Assembly (NCBI GenBank): GCA_043805315.1
Contig: JAZDID010000009.1
Span: 1-33,928 of the forward strand
Direction of reading: 5' to 3'
DNA length: 33,928 nt
Source of the DNA: Nanobdellota archaeon
GTDB taxonomy: Archaea; Nanobdellota; Nanobdellia; Woesearchaeales; JAHJEM01
Positions within the stretch are counted from its first letter, which is position 1, and each line of letters begins with the position of its first letter. Shown here in pieces: positions 3,952 to 33,366 of this stretch. The position numbers and the translations under genes are program-made. A model generated the notes under the pieces. That model was not told where the DNA came from. It saw nothing but the letters and a program-made list of their open reading frames with translations, and searched no databases.

Positions 3952-4719
3952 TTATGATTTTTTCTCTTTCTTGGGCTTCTGCAGGGTTTCCATCTCAGTC
4001 TTGCCTTCAGTGATGATCTCTTTCACTTCCTGGCTTGGAGTCTCTGCCTCGAGCTTCTTCACTTCCCGCTCCTCTTCTGTACCCAATACAATCTCGATCT
4101 CCTTTGCCTCGATTTCTTCCTCTGTGAGGAGCTTCTTTTCCTCTTCGCTGAGCTCTGCTTTTCCTTTCAGCTTCTTCTTCTTGTCTTCGTGCCTTTCTTT
4201 CTCCTCATCCCTGATCCGCTCAGGATGCTCGATGTCATACAATGTTGATTTTGGCGAGAATGCGATGTATGCCTCTTCTCCGACGCTCACGAGATAGCTC
4301 GGGACTGTTATCTTCTGGTTTTGGACAGAGATGTGATGGTGCACGATGAATTGGCGCGCCTGGTCCATAGAGCGCGCAAGGCTCTTTTTGAAGACAAGGC
4401 TCTGCAGCCGTCTCTCCAGGATGTTCTTGATCTGCAGGCCTAACACGTCATCCAAGGGAGCTCCTGGCTGGAGCAAGCCGAGGCGGACAAGCCGGGAAAG
4501 GATTTGTGCCTTCTCCTTTTCTGCCTGCATTCCCTGGCGCGCGGTCAATAACTTTGCCTGGTCCTTGAAGTTCTTGAGCACAGACTCCATCTTCCAAATC
4601 TCCTTTTTTCTCCGCAGCCCATACTCTTTCAAGAGTGTATTCTCCAGCTCGATCCGTGATTTCTGCCAGGGATGCGCGGGCGTATAGTACTTTTTCCTGT
4701 TTTTCTTGATATCTCCCAT
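3952..4719 (-). CDS. rps4: 30S ribosomal protein S4 (uS4) with charged C-terminal extension
   Basis: [33 protein letters not shown]. Confidence 0.96.
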
Positions 4720-4728
4720 CTTCTCTCC

Positions 4729-5316
4729 TTATTTCTTCCTGTCGTCTCCCTGCGGCGCTGCAACCTTCTTCCTTATCACGCCCAGGCCCTTGCCTTTGTT
4801 CTTCCTGAAATTAGACTTGGTCCGCTGGCCGCGGACAGGAAGGCCCCACTGGTGCCGCAAGCCTTTGTATGATTTAACTTTCTTCATAAGCTTGATGTCG
4901 TTTTCTCTCGTAAAGGTGAGATCTGAAGTGATGAGATGCCTGTCTGCTCCGGTCTCAGGATCCTTGCGCCTGTTGAAGAGCCACACAGGAATATGAAACC
5001 TGACAGGATTCCTGATCACCTCATCCAAGGCATTGACTTCTGAATCCAACAGCTCTCCGGTGCGCTTCTGCTTGTCCACGCCTGCAATATGGCAGACTGT
5101 ATGCGCGAACATGACATTGATGCCCTTGATCTTCCGTAACGAGAACATGATCTGCTTCCTGCCGTCCAGGTCTGTGTTGGCAATACGGACGATATGCTTG
5201 TAGTTCGCAGAAGCGTCTGTAGGACGCATCATGACCGGCTTTTGCATGCTTACCTGAGGCTTTTGTTCCTGGCTACGCGGCTTTTTCTGGTCTTGCCCTT
5301 TCCTGTCATCAACCAT
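4729..5316 (-). CDS. rps13: 30S ribosomal protein S13 (uS13) with N-terminal extension
   Basis: IVRIANTDLDG, WLFNRRKD, YKGLRHQWGLPVRGQRTKSN. Confidence 0.97.
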   Translation of the reverse strand: MVDDRKGQDQKKPRSQEQKPQVSMQKPVMMRPTDASANYKHIVRIANTDLDGRKQIMFSLRKIKGINVMFAHTVCHIAGVDKQKRTGELLDSEVNALDEVIRNPVRFHIPVWLFNRRKDPETGADRHLITSDLTFTRENDIKLMKKVKSYKGLRHQWGLPVRGQRTKSNFRKNKGKGLGVIRKKVAAPQGDDRKK

Positions 5317-5344
5317 TGTTCACGTTCACGATGATTTATACACT

Positions 5345-5458
5345 ATTCCCGTGCGAATCGTGTTTAGAATAAGCGAACCCACAGTTTCAGTAAGTTCTCT
5401 TACCCTCAACGCTCTTCACTCGGGCAATAATCGAGTGGAACAGCAAGGGATTTATAAA
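5345..5458 (-). promoter_or_regulatory. TATA box (TTTATAAA, 5451-5458) and structured 5' leader of the rps13 operon
   Basis: On the minus strand ATTGCCCGAGTGAA pairs with TTCGCACGGGAAT and encloses GAGCG/CGCTT and a GGTAAG-AGAA-CTTACT hairpin. Confidence 0.5.
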
Positions 5459-5495
5459 GGTTACGGAAAGAATAAAGCACGTACTTCTGAAAGAC

Positions 5496-6446
5496 TCAGT
5501 GTGAGAAGTACTGCTGTTTGAAGATGATCGTTGGATTGAGGTAGTCATAGCTGATTATAAAACTGCCAAACTTTTTCTTTAACTGATCGATAAACTCAAG
5601 GAATTTCTCAAAAGATTCAAGCTCCAGGTCGAACTCGAAGTCAGTGCCACCTATGAACTTGTCATAATACACGACATTCTTGTGCATCTTGATAAAGGCA
5701 TACATCTGTTTTCGCACTGAAAGGTCATTCAGGCTGATCATCAGCTTGTAATATGTGTATCCCATTTTCGCGAAATTAAGGTTGAGGCTGTAGCCAAGGA
5801 TGATCTTCTCCTTTTCGAGCCGTCTGATTCTTGCTGCGACAGTCTTTGGCGTCAAGTGAAGGATCTGTGCAATCTGCAGTAATGGTGTCCTGGCTTTTTC
5901 TGAGAGCAGCCTGAGAATGTGCTCATCTGTTTCGTCGATCTCCTTATGCTCTCTTCTCGCGATGACTGCGACAGTTTCTGCATCTTTGTCCAGGAGGTAC
6001 TTCCGCAGGAACTGATGGTATTCTAGGAGGATAGCGATGCGGACCACTTCCAAATGCTGTTTGAACTCCTGATAGAACGCGCTCCAGATCCTGTCAAACT
6101 CCTCAGGAGTCTTCGTGGAGATGAGCAGCGAGAGGTTGATGCTGCCTTCGACTTTTGCGACGAGCCACATCTGCCTGTTGCGTATTGCCTTGTCAATGAT
6201 CTCCTGCTCCTTCTCTGCAGAGGTGTTCCTGAACTTGAGATAGATGTCATATGTGGTGTAGCCAAGGCTGTTGACGTTCACACGGGCATTGTAGCCGAGA
6301 ATGACCTCTTCTTTTTCCAAATCCTTGATCCGGTTGATGACTGAGTTCTTGCTGAGCCTGATGCGCTTGCCGATCTCTGAATACGAAATTCTCGCGTTCT
6401 TGTCGAGTTCGTGGAGTATCTTTCTGTCTTTGACATCGAGATGCAT
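5496..6446 (-). CDS. Tandem (double) Lrp/AsnC-family transcriptional regulator
   Basis: Two HTH+RAM modules: LDVKDRKILHELDKNARISYSEIG and IDETDEHILRLLSEKARTPLLQIA. Confidence 0.9.
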   Translation of the reverse strand: MHLDVKDRKILHELDKNARISYSEIGKRIRLSKNSVINRIKDLEKEEVILGYNARVNVNSLGYTTYDIYLKFRNTSAEKEQEIIDKAIRNRQMWLVAKVEGSINLSLLISTKTPEEFDRIWSAFYQEFKQHLEVVRIAILLEYHQFLRKYLLDKDAETVAVIARREHKEIDETDEHILRLLSEKARTPLLQIAQILHLTPKTVAARIRRLEKEKIILGYSLNLNFAKMGYTYYKLMISLNDLSVRKQMYAFIKMHKNVVYYDKFIGGTDFEFDLELESFEKFLEFIDQLKKKFGSFIISYDYLNPTIIFKQQYFSH

Positions 6447-10076: not shown

Positions 10077-11573
10077 ATGGAAGAACGAAAAGAAGACATT
10101 GCAGAAACGCCTGAGAATCCTGATGAGCAAGAAGATTATCCTCTCATTGATGAGATAGGAAATATGGCTGAAGAAGGCGCAGACCAGGAAGGAGTCCTGC
10201 CAATAGCTGAAGAGGACACACGGGAAGAATTTGAAAACAGCTCCCAAAAAGAAAAAGAAATCAAGAGAAGCAGAAAACTACGGCTTCAAAAAGGAGAAAT
10301 TAAGGAAAAAATCAAGGCAACTCCTGTAAAACCCCCAGTTCGCAAAACCGCAAGAAAAAACATTGCCCAAAAAAAGGACAGGCCAGGAGAAGAAAGAGCG
10401 CAGAAAAAAAATGTTCCTTCCCCTGATGTACCAAGAAAGAATATAGAGTCTGGTTTTGGCCTTCTGGACAAGATCATCATCATCATCGCAATCCTTATCA
10501 TCATCTTTGGCATCACAGGTCTGGTTCTTATCAATTCCATAGAGAAGAAGCTTTCAGACAACGGCCTGAAACCTACCTCGCCAGCGACAGTTGAAAAGGG
10601 GCAGGTAAGCCTGTACTACATCAATTATTCAGGATGCCAGGAATGTGACAGAGACATCGCCGCATTCAAAAGCCAGCTTGAGGCCCAAAACCTCATTGTG
10701 AAGGATGAAAAGTATTATGATTATGAAAACGATAAAGGAGTTGAGCTTCTCCAATCCTCAAAAATAACGCATATTCCTGCATTCCTCATCAGAGGAGATA
10801 TCGACAACCTCTCACTCGACAACTTCGCACGCACAGATGACACGTTGGTCCAGCAAGACATCCCTGCGCCATACTATGACCTTGAGCAACGCAAGATCAT
10901 CGGAAGGGTAACAGCCATCAATCTTATCGACTCGAGCTGTAAGGAGTGCATGGATCTTAGCATCCTCTTAACGCAGCTCAGGGGCATCGGCATCGACCTG
11001 TACGAGAACATGACTATCGACATCACCACCACTGAAGGAAAACGCTTGCTAAGCAAGTACACTATCGAGAAAGTGCCTACAGTACTCCTAGATAAAGAAG
11101 CAGGAGTCTATCCTGCACTTACAGCCGGCTGGTCCCAGATCGGCAGCATTGAAGAGGATGGCATGTATGTATTACGGAATGTCACCCCTCCGTACAAGAA
11201 TATGAAAACAGGCAGCATTGAAGGCCTTGTCCGAGTGACCTATCTCATTGACAAGAGCTGTGTAACTTGCTATAATGTCACGCTCCATAAAGCAGTTCTC
11301 GTCGGAAGACTCGGCCTCAAGATCGACAAGGAACAAACTGTTGACATCGCTGAAACAGACGGGCAAAACCTCATCAAGAGCTATGCCATCACTGCAGTCC
11401 CCACAATCATCGTCTCTTCAGACGCTTCTGTCTATGCTGTGTTTTCCCAAATCTGGAACATCATCGGCACACAAGAGAAGGACGGCAGCTTTGTCTTTCG
11501 AAACATGGCAGCCCTAAACAACCAGGTCTATAAGAACCTGACCAATAATGAAACAGTGAACTCCCTTTCCTAA
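10077..11573 (+). CDS. Membrane-anchored protein with three thioredoxin-like CxxC repeats
   Basis: Charged N-terminus, one TM, then repeats with CQEC/CKEC/CVTC, each followed by G..L...I..(I/V)P(A/T). Confidence 0.8.
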   Translation: MEERKEDIAETPENPDEQEDYPLIDEIGNMAEEGADQEGVLPIAEEDTREEFENSSQKEKEIKRSRKLRLQKGEIKEKIKATPVKPPVRKTARKNIAQKKDRPGEERAQKKNVPSPDVPRKNIESGFGLLDKIIIIIAILIIIFGITGLVLINSIEKKLSDNGLKPTSPATVEKGQVSLYYINYSGCQECDRDIAAFKSQLEAQNLIVKDEKYYDYENDKGVELLQSSKITHIPAFLIRGDIDNLSLDNFARTDDTLVQQDIPAPYYDLEQRKIIGRVTAINLIDSSCKECMDLSILLTQLRGIGIDLYENMTIDITTTEGKRLLSKYTIEKVPTVLLDKEAGVYPALTAGWSQIGSIEEDGMYVLRNVTPPYKNMKTGSIEGLVRVTYLIDKSCVTCYNVTLHKAVLVGRLGLKIDKEQTVDIAETDGQNLIKSYAITAVPTIIVSSDASVYAVFSQIWNIIGTQEKDGSFVFRNMAALNNQVYKNLTNNETVNSLS

Positions 11574-12105: not shown

Positions 12106-12522
12106 ATGGCGCAGAAGAAAACAGTCATGGTGTTCGGCTCATTCGACGTGCTTCATCCCGGGCATCTTAACCTTTTCCGCCAGGCGAAAAAGCTCGGAGG
12201 TGAGCTCATCGTGGTCATAGCCAGGGATACAACCATAGAACAGATAAAGAAGAAGAAACCTGTATTCCCTGAAAAGACCAGGAAACAAAACCTGCTCAGC
12301 AGCCTCTACAGCAGCAGGGTGGTTCTTGGGAATAAAAAGAACAAGCACCAGGTCATCCTCCAATACAAGCCAGATGTCATTGCCCTCGGCTATGATCAGA
12401 CGCACTTTGTCCAGGGGTTAAGAGAACTGATACAACAGAACAAGCTCCACACAACCATCATCCGGCTCAAACCCTATAGGAAAGACATATACAAAAGCAC
12501 AAAACTCGCAAAAGGGCAGTGA
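12106..12522 (+). CDS. ribL: FAD synthase / cytidylyltransferase family
   Basis: VMVFGSFDVLHPGH, VVIARD, KPDVIALGYDQ. Confidence 0.85.
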   Translation: MAQKKTVMVFGSFDVLHPGHLNLFRQAKKLGGELIVVIARDTTIEQIKKKKPVFPEKTRKQNLLSSLYSSRVVLGNKKNKHQVILQYKPDVIALGYDQTHFVQGLRELIQQNKLHTTIIRLKPYRKDIYKSTKLAKGQ

Positions 12523-12544
12523 TCATATTTTAATGGCACCCCCT

Positions 12545-12759
12545 TGCCTCTGAGATATAGTGTGACTGCATTCCTCTGCACTATACCCTGCTCTCAGGAT
12601 TCTTTCAGAGAAAAGAGCATTTCAGATAGATAAACCTGAAAAATTCAAAAGTTGAACATCCTCATGTCATCTCAAACTGGATGTTGACAGAGTTATTGAA
12701 AGGAGCCAACCCCTTAAAATCAGTTGGTTTGACCACTTTAAGGAGTGTCCTGTGAGGCA
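12545..12759 (+). ncRNA. Candidate multi-branch structured RNA
   Basis: TGCCTC/GAGGCA closing stem around 6-7 short hairpins; G-T wobbles favour the + strand; no ORF. Confidence 0.3.
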
Positions 12760-12869
12760 GACATCAGTATAGAAATCTTTCAGAATGAATATTATGACAT
12801 CAGGTTAGAAAAAAGGAAAGAGCGGATTTTTTTAAACTTGGGATAAATTTTATGTAAAAATACAAAGTG

Positions 12870-13036
12870 ACAGCGTTTAACACCTCGTGAATCTGATATC
12901 ATTACGCCGTTTATAATATCAGAAACGAAAGCAGCACTTTTCACATCGACGACAAAGAGATATCACCTACCAGAATTCATATCATAAAACGGTTAATGAT
13001 ATCGAATTCGAAGAATATATATACTCTAGTATACAT
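12870..13036. repeat. Dyad-symmetric repeat unit 1
   Basis: Starts ACAGCGTTTAACACC; arms GATATCATTA/TAATGATATC are symmetric about TCGaCGA (centre 12949). Confidence 0.92.
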
Positions 13037-13173
13037 GTGGTATGGAAATTTTTCGGAACTATCACATTCATCATATTTTTTCTCGATAATAGACTGTAAA
13101 CATATATATTGAAGGATATGAATATGAGTTTATTCCGGAAATTTCGAAAAAAATCCGATCATTAAGATTTATC

Positions 13174-13340
13174 ACAGCGTTTAACACCTCGTGAATCTGA
13201 TATCATTACGCCGTTTATAATATCAGAAACGAAAGCGACACTTTTCACATCGACGACAAAGAGATATCACCTACCAGAATTCATATCATAAAACGGCTAA
13301 TGGGCATGAATTCAAGTTATATATGTTGTCAAGTATACAT
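13174..13340. repeat. Dyad-symmetric repeat unit 2
   Basis: 120 of the first 122 nt identical to unit 1; gapless similarity continues to AGTATACAT. Confidence 0.92.
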
Positions 13341-13436
13341 ATTGATCATTTTCAACTTTGCAATATGTGATTTTGTCCCAATTGTGCGACAGAAAAATCA
13401 TGAAATAAGAAAAAAGTGAGGAATTCGCGCCATTGA

Positions 13437-13597
13437 ACAGCGTTTAACACCCCTCGAATCTGATATCATTACGGCGTTTATCATGTAAATTATGAAATCA
13501 TGAAAAATATCCTCGTCGATTATGATTTGTATGCCTTGCGAATTTATATTATAAACGGGTTAATGACTTTAAATTCGCTTAAAGTATATTGTGAAAT
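13437..13597. repeat. Dyad-symmetric repeat unit 3 (diverged)
   Basis: Aligns without gaps to units 1 and 2; arms and central TCGtCGA (centre 13516) conserved, intervening bases diverged. Confidence 0.85.
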
Positions 13598-13679
13598 GTG
13601 TGTTTTATAGTATCTAAATATGATAATGAAAAATGAAGATAATAAAGAAAATAAAAAAAATATGAGAAATAATGATTGT

Positions 13680-15637
<1,958 letters not shown>

Positions 15638-15726: not shown

Positions 15727-16197
15727 TCATCGTATCTTCTTCCTGTCCTGTTTCTGAGAGATGAGCTTGTGCAATTCCTCCTCAAAGCTCTGCAGGTCTG
15801 AGAACTCACGATAGACGCTCGCGAACCTAATGTATGCCACTTTGTCCAGCTGCTTGAGCTTGTTCATCACCAGCTCGCCGATGGTCCTGCTGGCTATCTC
15901 AGTAGACTTCATACCTTTGATCTTCTGCTCAATGCTCTCGACGACCTGATCAATCTGCTCGTTCGTGACCTGCCGTTTCTCGCAGGCTTTCAGGATTCCC
16001 TGCTTAATCTTGACTTTGTCAAAATGCTGGCGTGAACCATCCTTCTTGATGACAACGATGCTGATGACCTCGACCTTCTCATAGGTGGTGAAGCGCTTCT
16101 TGCATTTGAGGCATTCCCTTCTCCTGCGCACTTCAGCGCCCTGATCCCTAGAATCGATGACCTGGGTCTCTGCAAAGGAACAGTAGGGGCAGTTCAT
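15727..16197 (-). CDS. nrdR: Transcriptional repressor NrdR
   Basis: CPYC..VIDSR..RRRRECLKCKKRFTTYE Zn ribbon, ATP cone, VAYIRFASVYREF. Confidence 0.96.
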   Translation of the reverse strand: MNCPYCSFAETQVIDSRDQGAEVRRRRECLKCKKRFTTYEKVEVISIVVIKKDGSRQHFDKVKIKQGILKACEKRQVTNEQIDQVVESIEQKIKGMKSTEIASRTIGELVMNKLKQLDKVAYIRFASVYREFSDLQSFEEELHKLISQKQDRKKIR

Positions 16198-33144: not shown

Positions 33145-33366
33145 ATGACAACACGAAGCCATAATCTTCCGTTAGCAGCAATGGAGCGCATCATGAAGCA
33201 AGTCGGCGCAGACCGGGTGTCTGAAGACGGCAAAGCAGCATTGCGGGACGTTCTTGAGGATACCGCGATCAATATCAGCGAGCGCGCGATGAAATTCGCC
33301 ATGCATGCCGGCCGAAAGACCATCAAGGCAGAAGACATCAAGCTCGCGAGCAAGGAAAGCGGATAA
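33145..33366 (+). CDS. Archaeal histone
   Basis: LPLAAMERIMK..GADRVS, AMHAGRKTIKAEDIKLA. Confidence 0.96.
   Translation: MTTRSHNLPLAAMERIMKQVGADRVSEDGKAALRDVLEDTAINISERAMKFAMHAGRKTIKAEDIKLASKESG

Follow-up and report, generated by a model that had tools for sequence, protein, structure and literature searches.

A long stretch of DNA without genes raises the question of what, if anything, maintains it, and the question is a pointed one for the longest such stretch in the assembly of a Nanobdellota archaeon of the Woesearchaeales (GCA_043805315.1, here G000; 1.52 Mb in 147 contigs, 89% complete). The stretch lies on contig C9 (JAZDID010000009.1), whose 33,928 nucleotides are the window analysed here, and it holds an array of three long, dyad-symmetric repeat units that an initial annotation of the window had singled out. 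With its geometry, its genome-extreme rank for helical phasing, the retention of this physical trait by another species and its lack of RNA or coding signal, the array is a real, lineage-restricted, DNA-level architectural element, and the question becomes what kind of architecture it might support.

The annotation's estimate of some 1.15 kb free of open reading frames (ORFs) holds. Positions 12523 to 13671, a total of 1149 bp, contain no ORF of 70 amino acids or more, the next of 22 such stretches in the assembly measuring 631 bp, and at 0.327 their G+C fraction is the lowest among the assembly's long ORF-free stretches. The intergenic region as a whole (12523 to 13679) lies between two converging genes, which end at 12522 on the plus strand and at 13680 on the minus strand. 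Two genomes of the same genus, G001 and G002, were compared with G000.

Geometry of the repeat units

A repeat search returns a single family of three gap-free 167-nt copies, spaced 304 and 263 bp apart, at the positions given in the annotation, 12870, 13174 and 13437. On a recount relative to unit 1 (12870 to 13036), which serves as the reference copy, unit 2 (13174 to 13340) is 90% identical, sharing 120 of the first 122 nt and 151 of 167 overall, and unit 3 (13437 to 13603) is 65% identical, matching without gaps at 109 of 167 positions, with 42 matches in the first 47 nt and 67 in the remaining 120. Within each unit a pair of inverted 31-nt arms (12889 to 12919 with 12979 to 13009 in unit 1) is complementary at 24, 19 and 22 of 31 positions in units 1, 2 and 3, respectively; among 20,000 pairs of random 31-mers of the region's composition, none reaches 22. 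The palindrome TCG-N-CGA, described as lying on the symmetry axis, is found at the exact midpoint of the arms in every unit, as TCGACGA at 12946 to 12952 in unit 1 and at 13250 to 13256 and 13513 to 13519 (TCGTCGA) in units 2 and 3.

Each arm in turn sits inside a 37-bp near-palindrome, here called a module, with the borders GAATTY and RAATTC. The left module of unit 1 occupies 12889 to 12926 around the core GCCGTTTAT, with equivalents that start at 13193 and 13456, and the right module, 37 bp with GAATTC at both ends, occupies 12973 to 13009 around the core ATAAAACGG, with equivalents at 13277 to 13313 and 13540 to 13576. Within a unit, 84 bp separate the two module starts, and the centre follows 57 bp after the left module begins, placing the three dyad centres of a unit, by coordinate arithmetic, at offsets of 18, 60 and 102, or 42 bp (4.0 helical turns) from one to the next. 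The best-kept piece of the modules is an asymmetric 20-mer, CCGTTT(T)ATNATATGAATTC, which makes up one half of each; the right module of unit 1 can be written as TCATATCATAA / AACGGT / TAATGATATCG, with arms that are symmetric at 8 of 11 positions about a 6-bp spacer. Each unit opens with a flank motif, ACAGCGTTTAACAC, on the plus strand (12870 to 12883, 13174 to 13187 and 13437 to 13450), one case of a sequence that the genome as a whole contains in excess. The right module of unit 2 is further distinguished by a clustered change at 13298 to 13306, where GATATCG has become GGGCATG and the module ends have become a perfect 8-bp palindrome (GAATTCAT/ATGAATTC), as would be expected from hairpin-templated repair or template switching.

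Helical phasing of the array

The unit spacings of 304 and 263 bp had been read as near-integral numbers of turns at 10.5 bp per turn. The arithmetic stands for the window, but the centres of the G001 units are 271 and 251 bp apart, or 25.8 and 23.9 turns, and unit spacing alone is therefore fragile evidence; the strong evidence comes from the periodicity of dinucleotides. Linker 1 (13010 to 13173) carries phased A/T tracts in antiphase to G/C dinucleotides, with an AA/TT power of 8-9 at 10.2-10.5 bp, and the phased A/T tracts of linker 2 (13314 to 13436) are in register with those of linker 1 at 10.5 bp (phases of 178 and 193 degrees). An agreement within 15 degrees at 10.5 bp is seen for the linker pair of G000 and again for that of G001. 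When the four linkers of both genomes are summed, AA/TT steps peak at 10.2-10.4 bp (z = 17 versus shuffles) and G/C dinucleotides at 10.4 bp (z = 8.5 versus shuffles), the two classes being offset by 157-174 degrees in the four linkers and by about 160 degrees over whole arrays, that is, in antiphase.

Measured against the rest of the genome, the phasing of the array is extreme. Among 60,185 windows of 150 bp across the genome, those at 13001-13100 and 13301-13375 stand at the 99th to 99.9th percentile, and the 700-bp window 12801-13500 ranks first of 28,511 for the combined AA/TT and G/C periodicity at 10-11 bp, with a score of 37.9 at 10.50 bp as compared to 25.2 for the next locus and a 99.9th percentile of 21.7. 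With unit 2 masked, the score is still 31.4 and still first. The G001 array, despite its diverged linker sequence, scores 27.8-30.5 at 10.45 bp, exceeding all other windows of G000. Because Tandem Repeats Finder detects no 10-, 11- or 21-bp repeats in the array, the periodicity is not that of a decayed microsatellite. Inside the units, G/C maxima lie no more than 1.2 bp from the dyad centre in six of six cases when the central 10 bp are omitted; the support from this is modest, since a dyad-symmetric sequence permits only two phases. The next most phased 700-bp windows of the genome are at C90:401, C110:2201, C34:17001 and C10:1401, with sums of 24-25.

An orthologous array in a second species

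G001 possesses an orthologous array of three units (a, b and c) at the same site. On its left lie genes for a 114-aa membrane protein (55% identical), the cytidylyltransferase and an 87-aa membrane protein, and on its right groEL, 77% identical. The flanking genes are the same as in G000, and the module spacing, 84, 84 and 84 bp in the window, is 84 and 85 bp in units a and b, with the exception of unit c, where it is 73 bp, 11 bp or one turn shorter. In addition to this shortening, indels of 1-3 nt near the unit centre separate G000 from G001, and the freedom from indels described for the array is accordingly a property of the copies within the window but not of the comparison between species. 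Kept between the two genomes are the 20-mer CCGTTTTATSATATGAATTC, the unit centre and the architecture, a persistence that argues for constraint, because divergence at the level of groEL (77%) should randomise unconstrained intergenic DNA.

The conserved pieces form a mosaic with respect to orientation. The flank motif ACAGCRTYTAACAC lies to the left of the window's units, but follows G001 unit b on its right-hand side, reverse-complemented. The same sense is kept relative to G001 by the centre (TTCACATCG, TCGACGACAAA) and by islands within the linkers. In the three units of the window and in G001 unit a, the asymmetric cores of the two modules face inward; in G001 units b and c their arrangement is direct. 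This mosaic looks like the product of past small inversions between or within near-palindromes.

Beyond these two species the array was not recovered. At the corresponding site in G002, a small membrane-protein gene abuts groEL directly and no array is present, and within G000 a BLAST search with the unit finds this locus only, in a fragmented, 89% complete assembly where repeats at contig ends could be missed. Of 401 genomes belonging to the order, two contain the module pattern, and a single match stands alone besides. A covariance model built from five units matches only the G000 and G001 arrays among 151 genomes of the order and nothing among five genomes of the family, the best partial matches across both genome sets having E values of 0.036 and 0.51. 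The 20-mer, searched for in 185,579 species, is found on the G001 contig only, plus two lone matches at chance level. Plasmids, phages and viral contigs yield no match to the array, and in metagenomes the module pattern is found in at least 120 stretches with one match apiece, the best BLAST match to the arrays being 34 nt long (E 0.002), all at the level of chance. Reads from three sequencing runs yield only short, low-depth fragments next to the array and diverged pieces of groEL, leaving the array itself uncovered; one DNA run contains 0.19 of the words sampled. A loose version of the module pattern, applied to G001, G002, G003, G004 and G006, forms clusters only at the array of G001. One palindromic match in G002 was rejected as an unrelated promoter-region repeat, consisting of overlapping TTCTAGA palindromes in a divergent promoter region at positions 1500-1550 of its contig C75 (L159).

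A proposed wrapped nucleoprotein platform

The reading favoured here, at an even balance of belief and doubt, is that the array may be a sequence-programmed wrapped nucleoprotein platform, in which a histone or other chromatin protein and a dyad-binding factor would together form a chromosomal landmark or barrier. From the sequence and the gene content we infer that protein wraps this DNA, which proteins would do so and what the complex would do. According to this reading, about 740 bp with a bendability phased to the helical repeat throughout would carry three dyad-symmetric binding units, and the three dyad centres of each unit, its two 37-bp modules and TCGNCGA, 42 bp apart, would present themselves on one face of the helix. 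DNA phased in this way would be pre-shaped to wrap round a protein core, or to be wrapped by one, and the single histone and/or another chromatin protein, together with a sequence-specific dyad-binding factor, could assemble on it into a large and precisely positioned complex. Situated past the terminators of two converging units, such a complex could act as a fixed landmark, either as a transcription barrier or insulator, or as an SMC roadblock and domain boundary.

Candidate partners are encoded in the genome, namely an SMC gene on contig C40, fifteen TrmB-family ORFs and one histone gene. The last is the sole histone-fold gene found in the assembly and lies in the window itself (33163 to 33348), 20 kb from the array. 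The TrmB-family ORFs, of 162-285 aa and all above the Pfam cut-off, are distributed over 15 contigs (for example C98:37068, C35:372 and C65:1703), and are a large family for a 1.5-Mb genome. The annotation had also preferred a DNA platform to an RNA hairpin, a preference that is strengthened by the 10.5-bp phasing in two species, the lack of a consistent strand preference, an unfavourable covariation term of +2.96 and the absence of Rfam matches; of the functions it had listed, a histone-wrapping or SMC-related site is now better motivated.

Two known systems offer precedents. The first is boundary 1 of Thermococcus kodakarensis, an AT-rich, A-tract-rich region of about 1.9 kb between converging genes that is reported to be necessary and sufficient for an SMC boundary, to act via TrmBL2 by stalling Smc-ScpAB, and to include a dif site that is dispensable for the boundary (PMC11840125); function there is described as being carried by DNA structure, not by a gene. 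The array is likewise a large, AT-rich and A-tract-rich intergenic region between converging genes, in a genome with SMC and TrmB-family genes. It differs from boundary 1 in having no dif (the dif-like candidate of this genome is on contig C120), shares no sequence similarity with it and is known from its sequence and gene content, whereas neither dyad units nor a strict 10.5-bp phase have been described for boundary 1.

The second precedent concerns archaeal histones, which are reported to prefer alternating A/T and G/C motifs, and whose high-affinity sites have been proposed as tetramer roadblocks (PMC10151503). In both genomes the A/T and G/C steps of the array stand in antiphase at the helical period, with G/C maxima on the dyads, a pattern resembling that of high-affinity positioning sequences such as Clone20, obtained with HMfA/HMfB by SELEX and described in the same source. 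The array, however, is a natural locus of 740 bp as compared to a selected fragment of 60-90 bp; it is AT-rich, whereas archaeal histones have been reported to favour GC-richer DNA; and it carries conserved specific motifs that positioning does not need. Histone binding is best regarded as a candidate property of the array.

Several observations weigh against a wrapped platform. Periodicity within the units is weak, with a per-unit power of 1.7-6.8 and a five-unit sum (z = 5.0) that reflects G/C steps only, and it is the linkers that contribute the bulk of the signal. As near-copies, units 1 and 2 inflate the window score, even if masking unit 2 leaves the window in first place. The array is known from two species, and the abutting neighbours of G002 imply that it is dispensable or recent. 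Histone positioning alone does not predict conservation of the 20-mer, so that a specific factor must be postulated in addition. The orientation of the core flips between modules, which is awkward for a rigid complex, and the unit spacings of G001, at 25.8 and 23.9 turns, are not both integral.

A more ambitious form of the wrapped-platform idea can be entertained only tentatively and is, on balance, unlikely. The array would then be a natural and maintained archaeal chromatin super-positioning element of about 0.7 kb, with a shape tuned to the helical repeat and three dyad-symmetric anchor units, possibly pseudo-dif sites that hold an Xer-like protein. A single wrapped particle or filament, fixed in place, would form on this DNA and serve as an insulator or SMC roadblock between the two transcription units. 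If true, the array would represent a sequence-encoded DPANN counterpart of the eukaryotic boundary element.

Should the favoured reading of a wrapped platform be right, the array would be a case in which selection keeps the mechanical code of the DNA (phase, bend direction and dyad geometry) over hundreds of bp as the letters drift, in a minimal-genome organism with a single histone. It would also provide a 0.8-kb substrate for how archaeal histones and chromatin proteins read DNA shape, and would bear both on high-affinity sites as roadblocks and on SMC boundaries that rest on DNA structure, as in Thermococcus.

Selfish or relic DNA as an alternative

A doubtful alternative is that the array serves the host in no way and is selfish or relic DNA, either a palindromic mobile repeat of the miniature inverted-repeat transposable element (MITE), REPIN or ERIC type, or the remnant of an integrated replicon, homogenised by gene conversion. 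Its restriction to two species, its absence from the site in G002, whose flanking genes adjoin each other there, and its location between converging genes, where insertion harms least, are all consistent with such an origin, as is the near-identity of units 1 and 2 (120/122), which resembles the outcome of a recent duplication or conversion. With palindromic dispersed repeats such as REPIN doublets, ERIC and Correia-type MITEs the units share a position outside genes and an imperfect palindrome, some 120 bp long, in which two shorter palindromes are inverted to each other, a hierarchy also attributed to REPINs (PMC3116915); and the clustered change in unit 2 resembles hairpin-templated repair.

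Against this, dispersed copies are lacking: the array is a single locus in each genome, with zero further BLAST copies in G000, whose fragmented assembly could conceal repeats at contig ends, no covariance-model match outside the arrays in the 151 order or five family genomes, and no match in plasmids, phages or viral contigs. There is no visible target-site duplication flanking the arms, and the homology shared by the copies does not stop at the inverted arms but continues for another 19 nt on the left and 27 nt on the right. The phased linkers set the array further apart from such repeats. Neutral relics, moreover, should not keep an 84-bp geometry, a 20-mer and a top-ranked phase in both species, given that GroEL has diverged to 77%.

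Possible recombinase sites and the xerA neighbourhood

Recombination sites were among the functions initially suggested for the units, and the suggestion survives in part: the modules have the layout of a tyrosine-recombinase core, but are not copies of the family's dif-like site. In its full form, which is more doubtful still than an origin as selfish DNA, the proposal is that each module is a core site with inverted arms of about 11-15 bp round an asymmetric centre of 6-7 bp (ATATCATAA / AACGGT / TAATGATAT), and that an Xer-like protein would bind the array either to invert or shuffle segments, or to form a pseudo-dif landmark or SMC stop. The right module of unit 1, with 11-bp imperfect arms symmetric at 8/11 round a 6-bp spacer, has the layout used in searches for archaeal dif (PMC2958812), the comparison with published sites having been made by layout and not by letters. 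The genome encodes two full-length Xer-like recombinases, at C120:4704-5516 and C42:4257-5120, and the flank motif and TCGACGACAAA recur beside one xerA-like gene, on contig C120. Within the modules the asymmetric centre is the best-conserved part and varies in orientation, and the unit centre matches G001 in the +/+ sense (9/9, 11/11) with the flank motif in the opposite sense, the pattern that an inversion between inverted modules should leave. In PMC11840125, bacterial XerD-binding sites in arrays are also cited as SMC barriers.

Against these points, there are six modules per genome instead of a single site, the pattern being confined to two of the 401 genomes and one lone match; no recombinase gene adjoins the array; and the modules share only a few inner arm positions with the dif-like candidate on contig C120. 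The 47-bp segment between modules is too short to invert alone, loop inversions within near-palindromes can also arise by template switching without a recombinase, and the phased linkers are left unexplained.

The C120 locus has features of its own. Four tandem copies of the flank motif lie at 4448-4540, beside the xerA-like gene (4704-5516), and TTTCTCGACGACAAA is found on either side of that gene, at 4375 and 5667. The dif-like candidate, GTTCGTATAA-N6-TTAGGCGAAC, is at 5687-5712 and has a relative in G006 (C62:4974-4999). The sequence TCGACGACAAA was considered as a genome-wide motif in its own right and rejected, since most of its other copies are inside genes and probably reflect a codon effect, the exceptions being two beside the xerA-like gene.

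RNA genes and replication origins as improbable readings

It is quite improbable that the units are three small non-coding RNA genes, each giving rise to a long, imperfect hairpin transcript of about 120-170 nt. A hairpin can certainly be drawn. The arm-to-arm pairing is the minimum-free-energy fold in nine of 12 unit-strand folds (z from -1.0 to -3.9), namely on either strand for unit 1, unit 3, G001 unit a and G001 unit b and on a single strand for unit 2, and the surroundings of the units offer T-runs and AT-rich, TATA-like boxes. The candidate promoter boxes, however, stand at no fixed distance, and the favoured strand varies by unit, the more stable one being the minus strand of the window for units 1 and 2 and the other sense for unit 3 and G001 a and b. 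G001 unit c has no hairpin and is not dyad-symmetric. Covariation, which the annotation had proposed as a test of the RNA alternative, lends it no net support: for five unit sequences (about four distinct), RNAalifold gives 35 consensus pairs, eight of which show double changes that preserve pairing, but many of which are broken, and the covariation term is +2.96, that is, positive and unfavourable. Rfam 15, searched at E values of up to 10, has no match in the units, and its two weak matches outside them are far below gathering scores. In addition, the flips in core orientation would place complementary sequence in the loop of the RNA, and the phased A/T tracts of the linkers have no RNA rationale. 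No tRNA is present in the region. Nor is there a conserved small ORF among the six-frame peptides of the region when compared with those of G001, the matches mirroring the nucleotide modules, several of them with stops.

A replication origin, which had also been put forward, is disfavoured, and it now seems very improbable that the array is a second, non-canonical origin or the true origin, with the elements near cdc6 merely regulating that gene. The array does lie in the longest and most AT-rich intergenic region of the assembly (0.327 G+C over 1149 bp, as an unwinding element would demand), and like archaeal oriC it combines a long AT-rich intergenic region with inverted repeated elements and with phased, bent DNA of a kind frequent at origins. 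Archaeal oriC, in contrast, has origin recognition boxes (ORBs) or mini-ORBs flanking an AT-rich unwinding element beside orc1/cdc6. A regular-expression scan of the genome with an ORB consensus, together with reading of the sequence, finds no ORB-like element in 12523-13679, in agreement with the annotation, which had recognised none. Contig C24 carries the single Cdc6/Orc1 gene that a profile search of the assembly detects, and DnaA is not detected. Directly upstream of this sole cdc6 (C24:12831-14033, minus strand), ORB-like elements (TTCCAGAGGAAAC, and a dyad plus G-string) and an AT-rich stretch occupy C24:14039-14300, with TTCCAGAGGAAACAGAGG, then CCCCACCCCTTTGTTTCAGATGGAAA (dyad plus G-string, on the other strand), and the AT-rich stretch; in G001, CCCCACCCCTTCGTTTCCTGTGGAAG lies upstream of cdc6 on contig C75 (L177), where ORB-like elements are placed at about 205-230 and the site with its AT-rich stretch at about 120-240. 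The cdc6-linked site, conserved in both species, is the probable chromosomal origin, and since ORB-like elements are found beside the only cdc6 in both genomes, an origin at the array is unlikely. The array moreover has no initiator gene beside it, its neighbours being a cytidylyltransferase-like gene and groEL, both of which are transcribed toward it, and the same site in G002 is without it.

Integron attC arrays without an integrase (CALINs) have been reported in DPANN archaea (PMC9668308), but membership of the array among them was rejected, because the paired end boxes and the cassettes are both missing: searched with an attC consensus, GTTRRRY, four of six units have GTTAAAC or GTTAGAT 7 nt past the hairpin with no complementary box at the opposite end (the R''/R' pair), and the linkers, of 96-137 bp, contain no conserved ORFs.

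Flanking genes and related sequences elsewhere

The gene on the left of the intergenic region (12106 to 12522, plus strand) is cytidylyltransferase-like (PF01467, E 3e-18), and that on the right (13680 to 15341, minus strand) is a groEL of the bacterial type, followed by groES (15371-15637) and nrdR (15727-16197). A run of eight T residues on the groEL strand (13653 to 13660), 20 nt past the groEL stop codon, is a likely terminator, with no read-through into the array to be expected, and because of it the array would be placed past a likely terminator. Between the left-hand gene and unit 1, positions 12523 to 12869 form a non-coding stretch of about 350 bp with a higher G+C content, where G001 and G002 have a gene for a membrane protein of 85-87 aa, of which no remnant is detectable anywhere in G000. 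Elsewhere the window encodes Hjc, an RpoD-type subunit and the ribosomal proteins S4 and S13, which, with the single Cdc6/Orc1 gene and the lack of DnaA, mark the genome as archaeal; the annotation's guess of a DPANN host is correct. Across the 34-kb window GC skew tracks gene strand and is uninformative. Although nrdR is only 2 kb away, the array bears no resemblance to the consensus of NrdR boxes in an informal comparison. There is no sign of restriction-site avoidance, the observed/expected ratio in the genome being 1.06 for GAATTC and 1.11 for GATATC.

The short word AACAGCRYNTAACA, to which the flank motif belongs, occurs 32 times in G000 as compared to zero for a reversed control, and four times in G001; it is not found in G002, G006 or G022. 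Its copies in the window are at 1145-1158, 1173-1184, 12870, 13174 and 13437. A looser word, ACAGCNNNTAAC, occurs 74 times in G000 against 12 for the reversed control, with a strict 3-nt gap and flanks that are not conserved; 20 of these occurrences are intergenic, and of those within ORFs 32 run in sense and 22 in antisense orientation. The distribution of the over-represented word suggests that one factor may mark several chromosomal landmarks, and the two motifs common to the array and to the xerA/dif neighbourhood hint at the same. Three tandem variants of the word, spaced at 15 nt, are found at C15:6076-6120 within an ORF-covered stretch, and contig C39 has two copies, 2.3 kb apart at 10744 and 13056, of a conserved sequence some 90 nt long that includes ACGACAAACTATCGACGACAAACGACA.

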